Assembly: GCA_007376385.1 (NCBI GenBank)
Contig: VMGC01000002.1
Location: 96,001-160,000 of the forward strand
Reading direction: 5' to 3'
DNA length: 64,000 bases
DNA from: Parcubacteria group bacterium Gr01-1014_8
GTDB lineage: Bacteria > Patescibacteriota > Minisyncoccia > Phycocordibacterales > UBA2100
This document shows positions 6,672 to 62,683 of this stretch, in pieces. The notes below the pieces were generated by a model. It did not search any database. It saw only the letters and a list, made by a program, of their open reading frames with translations, and was not told where the DNA came from. Made by a program: the position numbers and the translations under genes. How positions within the stretch are numbered: the stretch's first letter is position 1; each line of letters begins with the position of its first letter.

Positions 6672-7528
6672 TAGTCTTTTGCCACAGATATCCATCGGAT
6701 TGCCGTATTTCGTCGCCAGTACGTCATTTGTCGCTTCGCGTAATGCCAGATGTCGCGTTCAAGTTCCTCTGCCATTTGTTTTTTCGTTACATCGCCTTGC
6801 AAGTACTGCGAAAGGTGACGATATTCCAGCCCTAGTTCGTGCATACGTTTCCACGATACTCCTTGTGAATGCAACCGTTTTACTTCAGTTATCATTCCTT
6901 GTTTCATTCGCGCCAGAAGTCGCTTGTGTATCTTTGCGCGGAGCACTGTGTTTCCCGGGTTAAGGCCGATCCATTCGATGTCATAGGGAAGCGGTTTTAT
7001 TCTCGCCGCTGGTACTTTTCCCAACTTTTTCGCGATCTCGATGGCACGGACGAGTCTTACCGGATTGTGCTTGTCTATCGAGAGTGCGCGCTTCGGGTCC
7101 ATAATTTTGAGCATTGCGTATAACTGTGACGCCGATTTTTTCGCTAGCTTTGAACGCAGCGCGGGGTCCGCAGGGACATTCGGGAGACTGATCCTCCCCA
7201 ACAGCGCGTCTATGTAAAAGCCTGTTCCTCCGCACACTATCGGCACCTTGCCTCGTGCCAGAATGTCATTAATGGCGTCACGACCTTTCTTTTGGAGATC
7301 GCTTGCCGTAAATACTTTTTTGGGGGAAGAGACATCAAGCAAATGATGTCGAATTCCCTTCATCTCGCGTTTTGTTATTTTGCCTGAACCGATATCGAGA
7401 CCTGTATAGACTTGCCGAGAATCTGCTGAAATTACCTCTCCATCAATTTTTCGTGCAAGTTCCACGGCAAACGCACTCTTTCCCGAAGAGGTCGGACCAA
7501 CGATGGCAAAAACCTTTGGCTGACTCAT
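6668..7528 (-). CDS. miaA: tRNA dimethylallyltransferase
   Basis: VFAIVGPTSSGKSAFAVELA...ISADSRQVYTGLDIGSGK; start taken at MSQPKV. The alternative ATG at 7549 lies inside the upstream 16-nt motif. Confidence 0.85.
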   Translation of the reverse strand: MSQPKVFAIVGPTSSGKSAFAVELARKIDGEVISADSRQVYTGLDIGSGKITKREMKGIRHHLLDVSSPKKVFTASDLQKKGRDAINDILARGKVPIVCGGTGFYIDALLGRISLPNVPADPALRSKLAKKSASQLYAMLKIMDPKRALSIDKHNPVRLVRAIEIAKKLGKVPAARIKPLPYDIEWIGLNPGNTVLRAKIHKRLLARMKQGMITEVKRLHSQGVSWKRMHELGLEYRHLSQYLQGDVTKKQMAEELERDIWHYAKRQMTYWRRNTAIRWISVAKDY

Positions 7529-7539
7529 GCGAGGCACTA

Positions 7540-7646
7540 TATACCCCATGAGATAGTATCGACAATATTATTTCTGAGTCGATATATATTTTGGCCATGC
7601 TGTTATTTCGGTGGAAAGATGGAAAGTGTTTATCTCACGGGGTAGA
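7540..7646. promoter_or_regulatory. inverted pair of 16-nt motif (TATACCCCATGAGATA at 7540-7555; TATCTCACGGGGTAGA at 7631-7646) between divergent miaA and DCC genes
   Basis: Exact or near-exact copies of the motif recur at 3 other intergenic sites; each copy faces the adjacent gene. Confidence 0.6.
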
Positions 7647-7654
7647 CTACAGAT

Positions 7655-8154: not shown

Positions 8155-9153
8155 ATGCTTCTCATGGACGATTTCAAAGACAAGGCATATTTCAGCGACT
8201 CTATCTATTGGGTCGAAGTGGACCGCATAAAACCAAATCCATTCCAGCCTCGCAAAGAATTTGATGAGACGGCACTTGCGTCTCTTGCCGAATCTGTCCG
8301 TCAGTATGGCATTTTGCAGCCGCTTGTCGTAACACGAAAAGAGATCGAACGCCCCGGCGAAGGCATTTTCGTTGAATACGAGCTTATAGCTGGCGAGCGG
8401 CGACTGCGTGCGGCTAAACTTGCGGGACTCATTCAAGTGCCCGTGGTTGTAAGGCGTGCAGAAGACAGCGACAGAATGAAGCTTGAGCTCGCCATTATCG
8501 AGAATCTTCAGCGAGAAGACCTAAACGCGATAGATAGGGCAAAGGCGTTCAAACGGCTCGTAGACGAATTTGGTTTAAAGCACGGCGAGATAGGGAAGCG
8601 CGTCGGGAAAAGCCGGGAATACGTATCAAACACGCTTCGAATTCTTTCACTGCCGCAGGAGATGCAGGACGCGCTTCAGGCAGGTGAGATTACAGAGGGT
8701 CACACGAGACCTCTGTTGATGTTGATAGACAGACCAGAAGAACAGCGGACACTGTTCAAAGAAATAATCGCGCGCCGGCTGACCGTCCGCGACACGGAAC
8801 AATTAGCACGAAGAGTGGCCATAGAAAAGGTGCGGAAAACAGATCAGCTTTCGCCGGATCTCATGAACCTGGAGCGTCAGTTGACCGAACGATTGGGAAC
8901 GCGCGTACGTATCGAGAAAAAAGAACAAGGGGGAAAAGTCACGATAGATTTTTTCTCACCGGAAGACCTGGCGCATTTGTGTTTGGTCCTGGCGTCCCAA
9001 GAAAGAACGAAGGAAAAAGAAGAAAAAGAAACAGACATGCCAGAAGCGAGTGCAAAACCAGGTACACTGGCACAGACAGCTGAACCGGTCGTTACACACT
9101 CTACAGAAAGCCCGCCAGAAGATCTCTACTCAGTGAAAAACTTCACCGTTTAA
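8155..9153 (+). CDS. parB: ParB/Spo0J chromosome-partitioning protein
   Basis: IKPNPFQPRKEFDE...GILQPLVV...GERRLRAAKLAG. The true start is probably ATG 8164 (MDDFKDK), 7 nt after a TATAAT at 8151-8156. Confidence 0.85.
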   Translation: MLLMDDFKDKAYFSDSIYWVEVDRIKPNPFQPRKEFDETALASLAESVRQYGILQPLVVTRKEIERPGEGIFVEYELIAGERRLRAAKLAGLIQVPVVVRRAEDSDRMKLELAIIENLQREDLNAIDRAKAFKRLVDEFGLKHGEIGKRVGKSREYVSNTLRILSLPQEMQDALQAGEITEGHTRPLLMLIDRPEEQRTLFKEIIARRLTVRDTEQLARRVAIEKVRKTDQLSPDLMNLERQLTERLGTRVRIEKKEQGGKVTIDFFSPEDLAHLCLVLASQERTKEKEEKETDMPEASAKPGTLAQTAEPVVTHSTESPPEDLYSVKNFTV

Positions 9154-13334: not shown

Positions 13335-14194
13335 TAAATCGCACGAACCAATCCAAGCGTTTCCTGAATTAACCCTTTTATCTCCATCGTTGAAAGCAGA
13401 ATATTTGCTTCAGAAATAGACATTTCTAACTGAGATAGTAGTTCGTCGCGTGAGCAGGGCGAGGATAGTATTTCCAGCACTTTGCGCTCATCTGAAGACA
13501 AATCTTCTCGCAATGACGGACTTACGATGTCGGTCATTTCGATGCCGAGCGCTTTCAAGATGTCCTCGGGTTCCGTTACTGGCGTTGCGCCGAGTTTTAA
13601 AAATTGATGCGTTCCGCGGCTTTCGGCGCTGAAGATAGAGCCCGGAACGACTAACAACTCCCGATTATATTCGGTCGTAAGCCGCGCGGTGATAAGGGAG
13701 CCAGAACGCTCTTTTGCCTCGATGACCAGAGTCGCCAGGCATAATCCGGCCATGATGCGATTCCGCTGTGGAAATGTGTGATCGGCGGCTTTTTGCTTCG
13801 GCTCAAATTCTGACAACAAAGCTCCGCCCGCTTTTAAGATTTCTCGAGCCAGCCCAACATGCGCTCTAGGATAGATGACGTCCCAATCGAGACCAGACCC
13901 AGGGACTGCAACAGTGGGGAGTCCGGCGGAAAGGGCCGCTTTGTGAGCACATGCGTCTATGCCATAGGCGAGCCCCGACACGATGACGATCGGGTAGCCG
14001 CGGAGACCCCCTATTAGATGTTCGCACGCCTGTCGTCCGTAGGAACTTGCGGCGCGAGAGCCGACCACTGCGAGCCATACGTCGTCGTAACGGGGAAGCT
14101 CTCCCCGGACATACAATTGTTTCGGCGGGTCCGATATTTCGGCTAATAGAGGGTGGAAATGAGCTGCTTTGAGTTGGCGTAACGTGTCACTCAT
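13334..14194 (-). CDS. dprA: DNA-processing protein DprA/Smf (short form)
   Basis: LAVVGSRAASSYGRQ...IVSGLAYGIDACAHKAAL Rossmann-like DprA core; start set at MSDTLRQ. Confidence 0.85.
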   Translation of the reverse strand: MSDTLRQLKAAHFHPLLAEISDPPKQLYVRGELPRYDDVWLAVVGSRAASSYGRQACEHLIGGLRGYPIVIVSGLAYGIDACAHKAALSAGLPTVAVPGSGLDWDVIYPRAHVGLAREILKAGGALLSEFEPKQKAADHTFPQRNRIMAGLCLATLVIEAKERSGSLITARLTTEYNRELLVVPGSIFSAESRGTHQFLKLGATPVTEPEDILKALGIEMTDIVSPSLREDLSSDERKVLEILSSPCSRDELLSQLEMSISEANILLSTMEIKGLIQETLGLVRAI

Positions 14195-14208
14195 TGTACT
14201 ATCTATTG

Positions 14209-14276
14209 TATACCCCGTGAGATAAACAGGTCTGACCTTCAACAGGAAAGCGGATGTGCATATCTCATGGGGTATG
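14209..14276. promoter_or_regulatory. inverted pair of 16-nt motif (TATACCCCGTGAGATA 14209-14224; TATCTCATGGGGTATG 14261-14276) between divergent dprA and serS
   Basis: Same motif as at 7.5, 18.2 and 32.6 kb. Confidence 0.6.
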
Positions 14277-14306
14277 CCGTTATTTCCGGCGCTTCCCTTT
14301 AGACCT

Positions 14307-17125: not shown

Positions 17126-18160
17126 TTGCTCGTCTCTCGTGTTATCGTGCGCAAAATGAAAAACTTCTGGGACACATTGCCGCGCCCTTTTTTCATACAG
17201 GCGCCGATGGAGGATGTGACGGACGCCGCTTTTCGGCGTCTCATCGCACGTTATGGCAAACCGGATGTGATGTTCACAGAGTTCACTTCAGCGGATGGTC
17301 TCGTTCTTGCACCACCTTCAGGACAGAAGATACTGCGGAAAAAGTTGGCGTTTGATGAGAGCGAGAGGCCTGTTGTTGCGCAATTATTTAGCGCGATGCC
17401 GGAGCGTATGGAAAAAGCTGCGGAATTGATAACCGAACTCGGATTCGACGGACTCGATATAAATATGGGTTGTCCAGTGGATGAGGTCGTGAAAAGCGGG
17501 GCAGGGGCCGCACTCATCAACGACCACGAGCTTGCGAGAGAGTTGGTTCGCGCGGCTGACCGAGGGCTCCGATCCGCCGGCCGGCGGATGCCTATCTCGA
17601 TAAAAACACGGATCGGGTATCGCGAAAATGAGCTTGCGTCGTGGCTGCCCGTTCTTTTAGAAGTGGAACCGGCGATGGTGGCAATTCATGCTCGAACTCG
17701 AAACGAAATGTCTGCAGTGCCTGCCAGATGGGACACGGTGAAGGAGGCAGTTCATATTCGAGACCGGCTCGGCTCGAAGACTTTTATTGTCGGCAACGGT
17801 GACGTACGGGATATTTCTCACGCGCGGGAACGCATAAAAGAAAGCGGCGCCGATGGTGTGATGCTCGGGCGAGCTATTTACGGAAATCCTTGGTTGTATT
17901 CAGGCCGGACGGATGCACCGTCCCCGAAAGAGCGCATCAACGCGCTCCTTGAACACCTCTCACTATTCGAAGAATTGATGCAGGGGACAACGAACTATGC
18001 GACCATGAAAAAGCATTTCAAGGCGTACATTTCTGGCTGGCCTGCCTGCCGCGACGAGCACGGCGCAGGCAGGGACGGCGCGAAAGATCTGCGGGTGAGG
18101 CTTATGGAGACGGAAGCGATATCGCAAGCAAGAGAAATTCTTACTGGCGACGTAGAGTGA
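17126..18160 (+). CDS. tRNA-dihydrouridine synthase
   Basis: FFIQAPMEDVTDAAFRRL...DINMGCP...IGNGDV Dus-family motifs. Confidence 0.85.
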   Translation: MLVSRVIVRKMKNFWDTLPRPFFIQAPMEDVTDAAFRRLIARYGKPDVMFTEFTSADGLVLAPPSGQKILRKKLAFDESERPVVAQLFSAMPERMEKAAELITELGFDGLDINMGCPVDEVVKSGAGAALINDHELARELVRAADRGLRSAGRRMPISIKTRIGYRENELASWLPVLLEVEPAMVAIHARTRNEMSAVPARWDTVKEAVHIRDRLGSKTFIVGNGDVRDISHARERIKESGADGVMLGRAIYGNPWLYSGRTDAPSPKERINALLEHLSLFEELMQGTTNYATMKKHFKAYISGWPACRDEHGAGRDGAKDLRVRLMETEAISQAREILTGDVE

Positions 18161-18230
18161 GAGCAGAGAACATGTACTCATGTTCTCTTCCGAGCCGAGG
18201 AGTCAGAAACTAGAGCCAGTTTACCAGTGA

Positions 18231-18333
18231 TATACCCCGTGAGATATAAACCTGTATGTCGCACTCTCGGCGCTCAATTTTGAGAAGATGTGACGCTATA
18301 GGCGGATAGAGCCGGACTATCTCATGGGGTATA
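18231..18333. promoter_or_regulatory. inverted pair of 16-nt motif (TATACCCCGTGAGATA 18231-18246; TATCTCATGGGGTATA 18318-18333) upstream of dnaX
   Basis: The right copy faces dnaX. The left copy faces leftward toward a 10-bp hairpin (18165-18188) with no annotated gene. Confidence 0.6.
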
Positions 18334-18341
18334 CTCCTTCC

Positions 18342-19424
18342 ATGACTGCAAAAACCGAGACGAAACACACGACTCTCTACCGCGCGTACAGGCCGCGGAC
18401 TTTTGGGGAAACGCACGGGCAGGAGCATATCGTAAAAGTCTTAGAGGCGGAAATAAAACAGAAAAAACCTGCGCATGCGTATTTATTCGTCGGAAGCAGA
18501 GGGACGGGGAAGACAACATTTGCACGCATTCTTGCGCGAGAGCTTGGAGTAACAGATAAGGATTTGTACGAGATGGATGCCGCATCGCATACCGGGGTAG
18601 AAAACATCCGAGAACTTCGCGAAGGCGCAAACGTAATGCCCTTCGAATCGCCGTATAAGTTCTATATTATTGACGAAGCACACATGCTCTCGAAGGGCGC
18701 ATGGAATGCGTTTTTAAAAACGCTTGAAGAGCCGCCTCCTCACGTCATTTTCGTTCTTGCGACGACAGACCGGGACAAAGTCCCTGACACAATTCAATCG
18801 CGTTGCGAGATATATTCCTTCAAACAGCCGACCCGCGAAGTATTAGCCCAGGTCGTTTCAGATGTGGCGAAGAAAGAAGGGTACTCGCTCGAATCATCAG
18901 CATCTGAATTAGTGGCGCTTCTCGCAGAAGGTTCGTTTCGAGATGCGCTCTCGATATTGCAGAAAGTGTTGGCAGTCTCGAAAGACCCCAGTGAGACAGG
19001 AAAATTGTCTCACGGGGCAGGTAAGAAAGTTACAGTGGCGGAGGTTGAGGAGGTCTCAGGAGCTCCGCGAGGCGAACTCGTGCGCCGTCTCTTGAAGGGA
19101 TTGTCGGAGAAGAATGCAAAAGATTCGCTTTCGGCCATACAAGAAGCTGTTGATGAGAATCTGGACGCTCGCACGCTTGCAAAATTGTTGATACATCGAA
19201 TGCGCGTAGTGCTGCTACTTCGCTATGCACCTGATCTGGCGGGATCTTTTTCCAAAGAACTTACCGACGCTGATCTCGCGCTTGCTAAGGAAATCTCAAA
19301 AAATCCAGGCGTGACCTCTGAAACATTGCGAATGCTTCTTGAGGCGTACGGAGCAATGGCATACGCAGCGGTCCAACACTTACCACTTGAGCTCTCAGTC
19401 ATTGATATATGCGGCCGCGAATAA
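18342..19424 (+). CDS. dnaX: DNA polymerase III subunit gamma/tau (short form)
   Basis: YRAYRPRTFGETHGQEH...GSRGTGKTT...DEAHML; 361 aa from MTAKTE. Confidence 0.8.
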   Translation: MTAKTETKHTTLYRAYRPRTFGETHGQEHIVKVLEAEIKQKKPAHAYLFVGSRGTGKTTFARILARELGVTDKDLYEMDAASHTGVENIRELREGANVMPFESPYKFYIIDEAHMLSKGAWNAFLKTLEEPPPHVIFVLATTDRDKVPDTIQSRCEIYSFKQPTREVLAQVVSDVAKKEGYSLESSASELVALLAEGSFRDALSILQKVLAVSKDPSETGKLSHGAGKKVTVAEVEEVSGAPRGELVRRLLKGLSEKNAKDSLSAIQEAVDENLDARTLAKLLIHRMRVVLLLRYAPDLAGSFSKELTDADLALAKEISKNPGVTSETLRMLLEAYGAMAYAAVQHLPLELSVIDICGRE

Positions 19425-21358: not shown

Positions 21359-21607
21359 ATGTTGCCTATTTTGGTTCCTCGGCTCGGAATTGAAAATGAA
21401 TACACTTTCACTTCACTCGCAACGCTCGCCAATAAATATATGGAAAAGATAAAAATTGAACATCACACACTATCAGGAGGTCTCTGGATAGGGGCGTGGC
21501 TGTTCACGATCGGTTTTTTGCACCTAACATTTTGGAAAGGTGTTCTCGCCGTCGTGATATGGCCGTACTACCTCGGTGTTGCATTCGGCGGCTGGGTCCA
21601 CATATGA
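21359..21607 (+). CDS. small hypothetical membrane protein
   Basis: 82 aa with two hydrophobic segments; overlaps the start of the nirK-like ORF. Confidence 0.3.
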   Translation: MLPILVPRLGIENEYTFTSLATLANKYMEKIKIEHHTLSGGLWIGAWLFTIGFLHLTFWKGVLAVVIWPYYLGVAFGGWVHI

Positions 21608-31580: not shown

Positions 31581-31712
31581 ACCCCGTTAGAGAACGCCCT
31601 GCCGAACACGGCTTCAGTCGTCTTAGGGGTGGCTTTTCTCTAACGGGTGAATAACTCGCTGTACAGAGCTTCCAGCATGGTATTCTTTGCAGATTAACAT
31701 CATCTCTTTCGT

Positions 31713-32239: not shown

Positions 32240-32587
32240 CTACCTGCTCTTCCCATCGTACGGAGTGAGCGTGAGTTCGGAAAGTTCGACGCCATCCAAA
32301 CATCGGACGTTGATCGAAACGGTAGGGCCGTTCTTGCCAGCTCCTTTTCCGAATGCCTGCACGCCGCAGGTCTTGCAGAAAAGGTGGTCTATCAATTTTT
32401 TATTGAATCGGTAACTTTGCAATTTGTTTTCTCCAGAGATCAGCTTGAATTGCGTTGCGGGTGAGAAGGTCAAGAGCAGTCCTTTTTTCTGACAGTGGGT
32501 GCAGTTGCACTCAATTACTTTCGTCAGATCTGCTTCAACTTCAAATTGCACTGCCTTGCAATGGCAAGCACCTTTGTATTTTTTCAT
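32240..32587 (-). CDS. GFA/CENP-V family zinc-binding protein
   Basis: CHCKAVQFEV...CNCTHCQKKG...CKTCGV cysteine pattern; start set at MKKYKG, 9 nt after the motif copy. Confidence 0.7.
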   Translation of the reverse strand: MKKYKGACHCKAVQFEVEADLTKVIECNCTHCQKKGLLLTFSPATQFKLISGENKLQSYRFNKKLIDHLFCKTCGVQAFGKGAGKNGPTVSINVRCLDGVELSELTLTPYDGKSR

Positions 32588-32596
32588 GAACCTCAG

Positions 32597-32702
32597 TATA
32601 CCCCATGAGATAAAGCATTTATCGTATCTCTCCAAATAATTTCCAGGCTAAAAGTCTATTAATCGGCTGAAATTGTAGATTTTTTTTATCTCACGGGGTA
32701 TA
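32597..32702. promoter_or_regulatory. inverted pair of 16-nt motif (TATACCCCATGAGATA 32597-32612; TATCTCACGGGGTATA 32687-32702)
   Basis: The left copy faces the GFA gene; the right copy faces the 32777 gene. Confidence 0.6.
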
Positions 32703-32776
32703 CCAATATGACCGTTTTGCGTAAGGTTATCTGAAAAGAAGAGCACATGTACTAAGGGGTGTGTTACAGTACCCCA

Positions 32777-33205
32777 ATGAAGAAGACGCTGGTTGTCGGC
32801 GGGGCGATGCTATTAGCGGGCTTCGGCTTTTATCTCCACGACATTTCGAAGATGACAGAGGCGGCTCCCATCGTTTCTGGCGATGTTATATGGGTTATTG
32901 AAGCCGCTGGGGAAGATCCAGAGTCTGCGGCGCCCCTTTCATCTGTAGCCATTAAGAGAGGAGCAAAAACGTATGAACTTGGCACATATGCTGGCTCTTG
33001 CTTTGAAATAGATAATGTATCGTGGAAACTATACGAAGGAGAGCTCACTGGGGTAATTTGCTGGTTTGCGGGAGGCGGCGAGGAATTGGGAGTCTTTGGC
33101 GAGGGAAGCTGGCTTGTCGTCAAGAGAGGACAGCTTGATGAAGGTTCAGCAGAAACACCCGGCGTTCGCGGCAACTTCAAGCAGATTCTTGTTCTCGGCG
33201 AATAG
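32777..33205 (+). CDS. hypothetical secreted/membrane-anchored protein
   Basis: MKKTLVVGGAMLLAGFGFYL signal/anchor. Confidence 0.45.
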   Translation: MKKTLVVGGAMLLAGFGFYLHDISKMTEAAPIVSGDVIWVIEAAGEDPESAAPLSSVAIKRGAKTYELGTYAGSCFEIDNVSWKLYEGELTGVICWFAGGGEELGVFGEGSWLVVKRGQLDEGSAETPGVRGNFKQILVLGE

Positions 33206-33952: not shown

Positions 33953-34013
33953 CCCGAACACACGAAGAGCACAGGCAACGAGCAATATGATGAGCACTAT
34001 GGACAAACACAGA

Positions 34014-34110
34014 ATGAAAGGTTTCAACCTCCGGGGCAAGCCCTGGACTCTGGGAAACGAGCACCGCTCGTTTCCCAAATTCCGCGGCCTGTCTGCGTGC
34101 ATCGCACAGG
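34014..34110 (+). repeat. copy A of ~97-nt near-identical direct repeat (copy B at 61918-62014); contains an 11-bp perfect hairpin
   Basis: 93/97 identity with copy B; GGGAAACGAGC-ACC-GCTCGTTTCCC. Confidence 0.6.
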
Positions 34111-48300: not shown

Positions 48301-48409
48301 CTATAGAGGGATGTGGACAATTGATTAACTTCTCTGCCTGCAGGGGACTATACTTGCAGGAAGGGTCGATTATACATATTCACTCTATTTTTATATGAAG
48401 TGGTTACAC

Positions 48410-49244: not shown

Positions 49245-49375
49245 GGTTCCTCGGAGCTTGCTCCGAGGTATTATGGAGCTCGCTTCGCTCGCGCAGTCTC
49301 GCAGCAGAGCTGCGAGGTATTGAACCTGTGTTTGCTCCTCGGCACGGAAATGCAACAGAGTACTTTTGCATTTCT
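49245..49375 (+). repeat. hairpin-rich intergenic repeat element (related copy, opposite orientation, at 62619-62683)
   Basis: CCTCGGAGC-TTG-GCTCCGAGG 9-bp palindrome plus about 60 nt shared with the 62.6-kb copy; a 48-nt extra segment bounded by the 7-nt direct repeat GAGGTAT; trailing 9-bp hairpin GAAATGCAA/TTGCATTTC. Confidence 0.5.
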
Positions 49376-49447: not shown

Positions 49448-49642
49448 ATGAACGTCTCAAATAATGTACAGAAATTGCGTATGAATCGTGATCTCACGCA
49501 AGAAGCGCTGGCGGATAAGGTTGGTGTTTCGCGCCAAACGATTATTTCTATAGAGAAGGGGAATTACACACCCTCAGTCTTGCTTGCTTTGAAGATCGCA
49601 CGCATATTTAAAGTGCCTGTTGAGGACGTCTTTTACCTATGA
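49448..49642 (+). CDS. XRE-family HTH transcriptional regulator
   Basis: LTQEALADKVGVSRQTIISIEKG. Confidence 0.8.
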   Translation: MNVSNNVQKLRMNRDLTQEALADKVGVSRQTIISIEKGNYTPSVLLALKIARIFKVPVEDVFYL

Positions 49643-61390: not shown

Positions 61391-61921
61391 ATGCGTCCTG
61401 ATACTATGGTTGTAGAAAAATACAGAGACGTCATGAAGCTTCCGCACGATATAGAAGCCGAGCTGGACGGTGCGCCTCTGTTTGAAAATTTGGAAGCTGC
61501 AATGGGGACACTTGAGCTCGAGCATAAACGCCGTCGCAACCTTTTAGAGCACGCTGGGAAGGCAGAACGTCTCAACTACCCTGATAAGGCAACTGCGATA
61601 AAAGCAGCGATAATGAATGGAAGGTCAGCAGCAAAAGAAACAGCTGCGTGGGAGGATTTTACGCAGTCGAATCCTTCTGCAGAACAGGCGGCAATAGTTC
61701 TAGCGCACGTCTCTCATTTTAGGTCCGCGAAACCGACGCTGCTCGATATGGCAATTGATTTCTTTCTTCTTCGTATTCAGGAGGTTACTGATGCGAAAAA
61801 ATCAAGAGAGATAGTGGCTCTCGCTGCAAATGCCATTCGCAGCAGGCATCTGGACGATCCCGAAAAAAAAGGATATTTACGGAGACTGCAACTCTTAAAT
61901 GGAGTGGGCGAGGAAAAATGA
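61391..61921 (+). CDS. hypothetical protein
   Basis: 176-aa ORF; its stop overlaps the ATG that opens repeat copy B. Confidence 0.4.
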   Translation: MRPDTMVVEKYRDVMKLPHDIEAELDGAPLFENLEAAMGTLELEHKRRRNLLEHAGKAERLNYPDKATAIKAAIMNGRSAAKETAAWEDFTQSNPSAEQAAIVLAHVSHFRSAKPTLLDMAIDFFLLRIQEVTDAKKSREIVALAANAIRSRHLDDPEKKGYLRRLQLLNGVGEEK

Positions 61922-62014
61922 AAGGTTTCAACCCCCAAGGCAAGCCCTGGACTCTGGAAAACGAGCACCGCTCGTTTCCCAAATTCCGCGGCCTGTCTGC
62001 GTGCATCGCACAGG
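61918..62014 (+). repeat. copy B of the ~97-nt direct repeat
   Basis: Aligned to 34014-34110 with 4 mismatches. Confidence 0.6.
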
Positions 62015-62058
62015 TACACATATATCGGCGGCATTCACCGTGGTACACTGGCACTCCC

Positions 62059-62610
62059 ATGAACACAACGATTACGACAGGGTGGCTGAAGTTTGTCATA
62101 GGATGGACAGCTGTGTTCCTATTCCGCTTGATACCATTCAGACCGCCGAATTTTGAGCCAATGTTGGCGACGATCATGCCGTTCTCAAAGCGATACGGCG
62201 TTGTGGGGAGCTTTTTGTTCGGATTCCTCGGAATTGTTCTCTACGATGCAGTAACGTCCGGCTGGGGGATATGGACACTTGTAACGTCCGTCTGCTACGG
62301 CCTGTTGGGTGTCGGAGCATATTTTTTCTTTAAGAATCGTGAGGCAACGGCAACACATTTTGTGATGTTCGGCGTCCCGAGTACGGTATTGTACGACGCT
62401 GTAACGATGATGATAGGACCCCTCTTCAATGGACAATCTTTTGCTGCGGCGCTCATAGGGCAAATTCCATTCACCGTCATGCATCTTCTTGGAACCATTG
62501 TATTTGCAACACTTCTCAGTCCCGCTTTATACCGCTGGGTCGTTCAAAATGATGTTTTGGAATTTTCTGTTCTATGGATGCAGGTTCGCTCGTTGATCGG
62601 CACTCGTTGA
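62059..62610 (+). CDS. multi-pass membrane protein (possible ECF-transporter S-component-like)
   Basis: 5-6 TM helices. The track ORF begins at 61918 inside the repeat; the internal Met at 62059 is a more plausible start. Confidence 0.5.
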   Translation: MNTTITTGWLKFVIGWTAVFLFRLIPFRPPNFEPMLATIMPFSKRYGVVGSFLFGFLGIVLYDAVTSGWGIWTLVTSVCYGLLGVGAYFFFKNREATATHFVMFGVPSTVLYDAVTMMIGPLFNGQSFAAALIGQIPFTVMHLLGTIVFATLLSPALYRWVVQNDVLEFSVLWMQVRSLIGTR

Positions 62611-62618
62611 AATTACTC

Positions 62619-62683
62619 CTGCTTTATTTCCGAGCCGAGGAGCAAACACAGGTTCAATACCTCGGAGCTTGCTCCGAAGAACC
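62619..62683 (-). repeat. second copy of the hairpin-rich repeat element (reverse-complement orientation relative to 49245)
   Basis: GCCGAGGAGCAAACACAGGTTCAATACCTCGGAGCTTGCTCCGA. Confidence 0.5.

Follow-up and report, generated by a model that had tools for sequence, protein, structure and literature searches.

Correia elements (CREE/NIME) of Neisseria are inverted repeats starting with TATA that come in three length classes and with variant ends, involve IHF and RNase III, and carry sigma-70 promoters at either or both ends; their copies lie mostly 5' of genes, with some in coding sequences (PMC2649163). They are the closest described systems to the element reported here, a pair of inverted 16- to 18-bp arms that we analyzed in a 64,000-nt stretch of Parcubacteria group bacterium Gr01-1014_8 (contig VMGC01000002.1, positions 96,001 to 160,000; this whole stretch is called the window hereafter) and in other genomes. 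Both have TATA ends, three lengths, two end variants (symmetric or asymmetric), promoters at the ends, here predicted ones, a location chiefly 5' of genes with a few copies within coding sequences, and arms capable of forming hairpins. However, Correia elements have a conserved interior and 26-bp repeats, are limited to one genus and contribute either a -35 plus a partial -10 or an inward-reading -10, whereas the element of Paceibacteria lacks a conserved interior, is smaller (about 42, 67 or 104 bp), extends over a class-level clade and would carry an outward promoter with no clear -35, set for leaderless mRNAs. Taking our observations together, we lean towards a Correia-like inverted-repeat element that became fixed in Paceibacteria and was co-opted as a promoter read by a putative factor.

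Other known systems share part of these features. Leaderless promoters of the -10-only or extended -10 type, as found in Actinobacteria and Deinococcus, have a TAnnnT box 6-7 nt before the start codon and a weak or absent -35. Their conservation is graded and they have no fixed upstream sequence, whereas here 12 spacer bases are invariant, GG stands in place of TG and a second copy in inverted orientation is almost mandatory. In E. coli, repetitive extragenic palindromes (REP) build bacterial interspersed mosaic elements (BIME), in which repeats of two types alternate with linkers of discrete lengths, the long linker binding IHF. The element resembles REP/BIME and REPIN (hairpin-forming REP doublets) by its alternation of two slightly different repeats, its discrete linkers, its intergenic position and its arrays in some genomes, but REP units are themselves palindromes, are mainly found at gene 3' ends, are lineage-specific and depend on REP-associated tyrosine transposases (RAYT). 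We rejected a REP/REPIN system with RAYT for the pairs whose arms end in TATA, which lie at 5' ends: only 1 of the 13 pairs with both flanks assigned sits between convergent genes, and, among the 113 Pfam families hit by 145 flanking open reading frames (ORFs), the commonest ones include no Y1 transposase. Rickettsia palindromic elements (RPE) are palindromes inserted in frame into coding genes; an apparent insertion of this kind is seen here in dnaX, but RPE are 100-150 bp long and of unrelated sequence, and here we found only one such insertion. Finally, the looping systems of LacI, GalR and AraC also have two sites for one protein near a promoter, one of them overlapping it. They differ by helical-repeat spacings, short palindromic or direct half-sites and their restriction to single operons, compared to hundreds of sites, asymmetric 16-bp arms and out-of-phase spacings in our case.

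Inverted pairs in the window and in Paceibacteria

By scanning the window with the 16-nt motif TATCTCAYGGGGTATA, we recovered eight copies with zero or one mismatch, compared to 0.02 expected by chance at up to two mismatches. These are the eight copies, at the same coordinates and on the same strands, from which an initial annotation of the window had started. Six of them are exact and two have one mismatch (the copy at 7631 ends in TAGA and the one at 14261 in TATG). Since relaxing the scan to three mismatches gave zero further copies, nothing is gained at two or three mismatches and the motif is all-or-none. A degenerate ninth instance, proposed at 48337-48360, had to be dropped: it has only GGGG..TATACT in common with the motif, lacks the TATCTCAY half and is not matched within three mismatches.

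All eight copies are intergenic and form four pairs, the left arm being on the minus strand and the right arm on the plus strand, with start-to-start distances of 91, 52, 87 and 90 nt. As first annotated, every pair (4/4) associates one arm reading CAT with one arm reading CAC at position 8 of the motif, and the spacers are unrelated to one another. These spacers span 7556-7630 (75 nt), 14225-14260 (36 nt), 18247-18317 (71 nt) and 32613-32686 (74 nt, A/T-rich); the second falls in the middle and the three others in the long of the spacing classes described below.

An exact scan with the 16-mer, taking one genome per species, matched at least 117 stretches. Among the matches listed, about 96 come from metagenome-assembled genomes (MAGs) of Patescibacteria, namely Kaiserbacteria, Paceibacterota, Nomurabacteria, Campbellbacteria and third-party annotation (TPA) bins labelled Saccharibacteria, while about 21 of the matches listed are single copies in other phyla, as chance predicts. 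Viral contigs gave 14 single matches and zero pairs, also consistent with chance, which ruled out a link with phages. In Patescibacteria the copies sit at non-orthologous intergenic sites, and the 142 genes flanking 74 pairs fall into 134 protein clusters, indicating that the sites are independent.

In order to describe pairing, we considered 175 copies in Patescibacterial loci. An inverted upstream partner (at most two mismatches, within 130 nt) was found for 140 of them (80%) and a degenerate partner, mostly close to the class distances, for about 11 more; direct-oriented or downstream partners were rare. Three classes of start-to-start distance can be distinguished (22-29, 49-55 and 76-96 nt, averaging 25.8, 51.7 and 87.1 nt), and almost no distance lies between them. 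Shared ancestry was discarded as the cause of these classes, as the flanking genes are nearly all different. The steps between classes, 25 and 37 bp, correspond to 2.4 and 3.4 helical turns, and we rejected a looping operator pair because the class means are not in helical phase. When we searched a metagenome sample with the 12-nt cores alone, allowing any spacer of 8-38 nt and no TATA requirement, the distribution was again bimodal, with 31 pairs at 8-14 nt, 74 at 32-38 nt (mode 35) and 14 over the 17 lengths between. The spacers had neither AA/TT periodicity nor A-tract phasing, and AAAAT occurred in 21 of the 33 long ones. No hidden third copy was found in long spacers either, the best matches having 5-8 mismatches at scattered positions.

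With respect to genes, a start lies behind one arm in 50 of the 74 pairs and behind both arms in only 6. Pairs between co-directional genes are the most frequent (41/74), their second arm pointing at the terminator of the upstream gene, and 23/74 are found between divergent genes. Of 128 arms paired with an exact copy, no more than 4-6 differ from the motif at any of positions 2-12, which are over 97% conserved; most changes are found at position 1 and in the TATA part (positions 13-16). Arms with no gene behind them thus keep the core yet lose the T at -7, which indicates that the 12-nt core is selected independently of promoter activity. Moreover, within the main family we counted 34 one-armed deviations and zero mirrored in the other arm, which favours reading of the sequence over maintenance of a hairpin.

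The two arm variants are not combined at random. CAT/CAT pairs are absent from the 74 pairs, with about 9 expected, and only 1 in 116 was seen in the metagenome sample. Heterotypic pairs account for 25/29 in the 88-nt class and 8/10 in the 26-nt class, and arms driving a gene favour CAC in the short and middle classes. In the short class, C replaces T at position 1 of one arm (GAGATG...TATCTC) in 7/10 pairs (loci L009, L010, L014, L054, L055, L100 and L116), usually in the arm without a gene.

Orthologous proteins of motif-bearing genomes are only 35-69% identical. DnaX from the window has 67% identity with that of a Paceibacteria MAG. At the syntenic Dus-dnaX junction of locus L096, we found both 18-mers, the C variant on the left and the T variant on the right, and a TATACT-N6-ATG identical to that of the window, together with a spacer 6 nt longer and with no evident similarity to that of the window. 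In a third species the dnaX promoter lies in a 51-nt pair, so that the distance at dnaX falls in different spacing classes among genomes (87, 93 and 51). Identical arms despite such protein divergence, and next to a dissimilar spacer, point to long-term purifying selection and not to a recent spread.

Together, these data indicate that the feature is real and strongly non-random. It is also apparently undescribed, as a literature search by topic and by sequence string returned no description of this motif, and no published account of transcription initiation in Patescibacteria (the candidate phyla radiation, CPR) was found beyond one Saccharibacterium data set. Other known binding sites were rejected on sequence, namely the DnaA box, parS, the IHF site, CIRCE, the NrdR box, Tn3-family ends and integron attC.

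Position of the arms relative to gene starts

We then considered the distance between the arms and gene starts over 221 copies from many genomes. The distance from the end of the 16-mer to the start codon of a long ORF has a sharp peak at 8 nt (39 cases), followed by 9 nt (16) and 10 nt (9), and ATG is the start in 71 of 87 gene-adjacent arms. Positions 17-18 lengthen the motif to TATAcT, which puts the start codon 6-8 nt past this hexamer, with a peak at 6 nt. The leaderless-type geometry advanced in the initial annotation is thereby recovered across loci. Position 18 discriminates between the two kinds of arms: T stands there in 87% of the 87 gene-adjacent arms, in which position 14 is A, whereas among 93 gene-less arms, usually reading TATAcC, the share of T drops to 26% and that of C reaches 53%.

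Gene assignments in the window were checked against called genes and against Pfam hits on matching metagenome contigs. The initial annotation had each copy facing a gene start, at 8-30 nt and behind a -10-like hexamer. This is correct for facing miaA, DCC, dprA, serS, dnaX and GFA, but only five arms lie 8-14 nt from a start codon. Three of them are the clearest. The right arm of pair 1 (CAC, 7631-7648, plus strand) has TAGACT, then 6 nt and a DCC1-like gene that starts at an ATG (7655) lying 8 nt from the 16-mer, a leaderless geometry. The right arm of pair 3 (CAT, 18318-18335, plus strand) is the canonical driver arm, with TATACT, 6 nt and the dnaX ATG at 18342, also at 8 nt. The left arm of pair 4 (CAT, 32595-32612, minus strand) has TATACT, 7 nt and the ATG at 32587 of a GFA-family gene (PF04828), at 9 nt. 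For miaA, whose product matches IPPT/IPT in Pfam, the left arm of pair 1 (TATCTCATGGGGTATAta, CAT, 7538-7555, minus strand) has a probable -10 box TATAGT (7541-7536), 7 nt and an ATG at 7528, which is 11 nt from the 16-mer. For dprA (Pfam DNA_processg_A), the left arm of pair 2 (CAC, 14207-14224, minus strand) carries TATACA and the ATG at 14194 is 14 nt past the 16-mer, compatible with a short leader or a shifted -10.

The three other arms depart from what was annotated. In the right arm of pair 2 (CAT, 14261-14278, plus strand), the serS ATG (14307) is 30 nt downstream, behind a poor, degenerate TATGCC box, and the last two arms drive no gene. The left arm of pair 3 (CAC, 18229-18246, minus strand; 16-mer at 18231-18246) has the box TATATC and faces a terminator hairpin and the 3' end of the plus-strand Dus gene (17207-18160), as expected for a promoter-dead partner. 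The right arm of pair 4 (CAC, 32687-32704, plus strand; 16-mer at 32687-32702) is also of the partner type, reading TATACC with no T at -7, and the next long ORF starts at an ATG 74 nt away (32777). Behind this dead arm (32703-32776) we also noticed an 8-codon mini-ORF with its ATG at 32708, and a hairpin, GGGGTGTGTTACAGTACCCC, that ends 2 nt short of the ATG at 32777 and may be a leader or a regulatory structure. Overall, five of the eight window arms have a TAnnnT hexamer with A at -11 and T at -7, and a start codon 6-8 nt past the -10 is found across loci.

We probably are dealing, at the outward end of the live arms, with the -10 box of a promoter for leaderless genes that has no clear -35, as this arrangement of sequence suggests. 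No clear conserved -35 was detected upstream of the arms (information content of at most 0.25 bit); a faint TTGAA tendency exists at 17-bp spacing, with TTG exactly there in 8/86 driver arms compared to 1/86 of the others. A canonical -35/-10 or an extended -10 promoter was rejected, as there is no TTGACA-like -35 and GG replaces TG at -15/-14. A sigma-54 promoter was rejected as well upon inspection of the motif consensus, since GG and GC are not at the required positions (-24 and -12) and the ATG is too near. In contrast, motif-free promoters in the window have a perfect TATAAT (or TGnTATAAT), then 6-7 nt and ATG or GTG.

The genes driven in the different genomes are unrelated housekeeping genes, including dnaE, dnaX, uvrC, recG, hisS, pheS, ddl, a murD-like gene, secD and those for L25, RNase H and a DksA-like protein, among others. 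Behind gene-less arms, a search for tRNA and other non-coding RNA genes gave a single tRNA, at 93 nt, and no Rfam match. A DNA uptake sequence was rejected, as the copies in the window are all intergenic and those across loci hold a fixed relation to start codons. In addition, CAT arms at the 8-nt spacing have a motif-internal ATG in frame with the true start (7549 and 18324 in the window); for 30 of the 221 copies, the long ORF that follows begins at this ATG. Gene callers can thus lengthen genes by 6-7 codons (MGYT... start); miaA, for instance, is called as 293 aa from the ATG within the motif.

Variant arms and related repeats

Two further pairs in the window have variant arms, with the same changes on both sides within each pair. 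One is a short-class pair, CCCAGTGAGACA-N7-TGTCTCACGGGG, at 18987-19017 inside dnaX (18342-19424). It belongs to a 36-nt palindrome related to the core, GACCCCAGTGAGACAGGAAAATTGTCTCACGGGGCA (18984-19019), which encodes 12 residues (KDPSETGKLSHG/A); exactly these are lacking in the single ortholog compared, the 67%-identical DnaX of locus L039. From its sequence, we regard this palindrome as an in-frame insertion of a hairpin element into an essential gene. The other pair, CCCCGTTAGAGA-N43-TCTCTAACGGGT(GAA), lies at 31582-31648 in the divergent intergenic region 31609/31713 and has the same two changes in both arms. It represents a sibling arm family, as its arm TCTCTAACGGGG is also found in L218, and a related arm, TTTCTAACGGGA, in L004/L049. 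A broad search for co-varying variant pairs did overall no better than a direct-repeat control, and a few perfect sibling families stood out.

The core-only metagenome sample revealed a second type of end: most of its pairs end in T(A/G)AA (TRAA), not in TATA, typically with one TAAA and one TGAA arm. In loci of this type (L137-L256 and L108:2690-3339), the 12-nt core TATCTCAYGGGG is found as inverted pairs and as dense arrays. The GC content of these contigs ranges from 0.32 to 0.64 and, from the ORFs inspected, their genes do not look Patescibacterial; they include secreted proteins with lipoprotein-type signal peptides, mreBCD-pbp2-rodA and an H+-PPase. TRAA pairs are not tied to one orientation of the neighbouring genes, lie in larger intergenic gaps and usually have no gene start behind. 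Some of these elements form arrays or share spacers between contigs; arrays were seen in L108, L155 and L233, and at contig ends. Rfam gave no match on the elements of the array loci, and only three tRNAs in the window.

One MAG, CAYPGH01, carries a tandem duplication of an 89-nt unit made of one arm and a 73-nt spacer (L022:806-1111 and L064:2867-3072), in which overlapping arms form a 28-bp palindrome, GGGGTnTACCCC; the copies are about 90% identical on the two contigs. This unit is the sole case of shared spacers among TATA-type pairs, all other spacers being unrelated. Considered with the probable dnaX insertion and the variant pairs, it points to an insertion-prone origin.

The window also contains other repeats. 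A 98-nt direct repeat with an internal hairpin is present at 34013-34110 and 61917-62014 (96% identity), the second copy beginning at the ATG of the ORF 61918-62610. Terminator-like sequences recur at gene ends, namely the intergenic TTCCGAGCCGAGGAG at 18196-18210, 21374-21388, 49330-49344 and 62628-62642, and the hairpin CCTCGGAGCTTGCTCCGAGG at 49249-49266 and 62660-62677. In addition, 51-nt arms at 49308-49358 and 62619-62669 are 90% complementary.

Function and origin of the element

In the mechanism that we propose, each pair in the window would be one small inverted-repeat element of 68-107 bp in total, with arms of 16-18 bp (TATCTCAYGGGGTATAcy). The outer 6 bp (TATAcT) would act as a sigma-70-type -10 box 6-7 nt before the start codon, so that a leaderless mRNA would begin at the A of the ATG. 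Live arms in the window would be those of DCC, dnaX and GFA, and probably those of miaA and dprA. The inner 12 bp, TATCTCAYGGGG, at -24 to -13, would serve as a recognition site, the putative factor reading the two arms as a unit, and the second arm, at about 26, 51 or 88 nt, would keep its core while usually being promoter-dead (TATAcC) if no gene lies behind. Judging from the sequence, there is about an even chance that the core is the site of a putative sequence-specific factor reading both arms at the measured distances. This factor would most likely help to recruit or position the RNA polymerase in replacement of the -35 contact, a role as repressor being less likely; recruitment is suggested by the TATAcT box, which is weaker and has no -35 or TG, compared to the perfect TATAAT of nearby motif-free promoters. 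As for its origin, the element most likely derives from short insertion-prone inverted repeats, as in Correia elements or miniature inverted-repeat transposable elements (MITEs), that became fixed and came under strong purifying selection.

The initial annotation had seen a positional element and no transposed MITE. Its association with promoters and its non-conserved interior agree with the former, but the dnaX insertion and the occurrence of the core in the TRAA repeats of seemingly non-Patescibacterial contigs bring a mobile-element origin back into play. These two features, like the three spacing classes, the scarcity of CAT/CAT pairs and the conservation throughout the clade, were out of reach of that annotation. 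It had also offered a promoter class or an operator as candidate functions. A recognition element or operator for a global factor is still the best reading of the core; the picture of eight promoters facing eight genes is not, given how few pairs have a gene start behind both arms.

Among the other explanations, the motif could be a promoter class in its own right, the 18-mer being read by the RNA polymerase holoenzyme alone, through an alternative sigma factor or a contact of sigma region 3 or beta' with the spacer, and the partner arms being non-productive polymerase sites or relics of bidirectional promoters. The contiguity of the motif from -24 to -7 in fixed register with the -10 box, an all-or-none conservation typical of alternative-sigma promoters, a G at -14 that overlaps the extended -10 position and the existence in the window of a second, ordinary promoter class (TATAAT or TGnTATAAT) unlike the core all go in this direction, as does GGGTAT, which we take to resemble the -10 of SigB/SigF-type sigma factors. 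We nevertheless find this unlikely: polymerase recognition alone gives no reason to keep the core in gene-less arms that lack T(-7), near-obligatory inverted pairing at discrete distances is foreign to sigma promoters, copies of the core with TRAA ends and no gene start exist in contigs of non-Patescibacterial appearance, and the driven genes are ordinary housekeeping ones. The overlap of the site with the -10 box is, on the other hand, the classic position of a repressor, and one can imagine an operator pair with no mobile history on which a dimer or tetramer of a global repressor bound to both arms occludes the -10 and silences a housekeeping regulon, for example off the host. Inverted sites at preferred distances resemble auxiliary operators, the presence of at least one strong CAC arm in each pair fits cooperative binding, and A-tracts are common in long spacers. 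Yet the unaided promoters would be weak (TATAcT, no clear -35 or TGn) next to neighbours with TATAAT, the spacings are out of helical phase with no periodicity of AA/TT, and the driven genes have no common function. Such a repressor would also leave the TRAA family outside Patescibacteria and the dnaX insertion unexplained, and we judge it rather improbable.

A hairpin acting as RNA or as single strand, be it an RNase III processing site, a terminator, an insulator or the substrate of an HUH-type transposase as in REP/REPIN, would explain why 16-bp stems can be folded from the arms of either strand (z-scores between -3 and -8) and why both arms change in the same way in the two variant window pairs and in the sibling families. 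Correia elements are themselves RNase III substrates, and the stem is regularly imperfect, with C/T at position 8 and A/G at position 14, which is reminiscent of the imperfect hairpins recognized by Y1 transposases. However, none of the one-arm deviations of the main family is compensated, CAT/CAT arms would pair perfectly yet are avoided, and the strand allowing a G.U pair bears no relation to the sense strand (C in the driver and T in the partner in 21 pairs, the reverse in 15). Divergent pairs have no read-through transcript, short-class spacers (about 6-13 nt) are too small for an internal promoter, and neither an Rfam match nor a transposase in the flanks was found; this explanation seems quite improbable to us. 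We attach even less credit to a selfish, currently active MITE without host function, for which the association with gene starts would only reflect a preference for insertion into TATA (-10) boxes. Ends that start with TA/TATA like those of TA-targeting elements, the existence of discrete length classes, the 89-nt tandem duplication on two contigs of one MAG, a related element inside a coding sequence and the arrays at contig ends would all suit it, and the element does have the terminal inverted repeats, many copies and discrete sizes of a MITE. Against it stand the unrelated spacers within a genome, together with a start codon 6 nt away and a position 18 that separates live arms (T) from dead ones (C), both of which indicate selection on promoter function.

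Several observations weigh against the Correia-like element read by a putative factor that we favour. No candidate binding protein was found, and nothing links the regulators of the window to the motif; the DNA-binding candidates present there are a ParB homolog (8155-9153), an Xre-type helix-turn-helix protein (49448-49642) and a response regulator (1057-1479). Occupancy of -24 to -9 by a factor is expected to hinder melting of the -10 and not to help it. Spacings that are not whole helical turns are not explained by a rigid dimer or a simple DNA loop. The co-varying arms of both variant window pairs fit selection on a hairpin or arm-to-arm copying rather than independent reading by a protein. 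On the promoter side, TAnnnT followed by 6 nt and ATG corresponds to the geometry of a sigma-70 -10 firing a leaderless mRNA, and it is from this geometry that activity is deduced. No tRNA gene lies directly behind a copy among the 26 in the examined loci, the nearest being 93 nt away, so the motif is not a universal strong promoter. As to a mobile origin, spacers of copies within one genome are unrelated, unlike those of real MITEs; neither a transposase nor any other enriched family was found beside TRAA-type elements; and the outer TA/TATA is palindromic and positions 17-18 are non-random, so that a target-site duplication is indistinguishable from the end of the repeat and cannot be shown.

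Of the candidates named above, the ParB homolog (ParB_N, HTH_ParB and ParB_C domains) is encoded about 500 nt from pair 1, and no parS-like site was seen.

For Paceibacteria, a searchable and strictly conserved 18-mer located 6 nt before gene starts provides a testable promoter model, the first for this group. The motif fixes real start codons in annotation, as for the over-extended miaA, and is a ready probe for its putative reader protein. Its layout of live and dead arms, its three spacings and its avoidance of two CAT arms are not those of any textbook promoter, operator or MITE. The same core outside Patescibacterial-looking contigs suggests a wider recognition system, possibly a mobile repeat turned into core regulatory hardware. 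More tentatively, and with less confidence than for the parts above, TATCTCAYGGGG could be the core of a cross-phylum family of paired repeats read by one widely conserved putative protein, and domesticated in Paceibacteria as a promoter module in which a measured spacer separates a live arm from a dead one. If true, about one in six transcription units would have its leaderless mRNA launched by this module, which would punctuate a compact genome, and promoters would be specified in a new way, a dedicated factor taking the place of -35 recognition.

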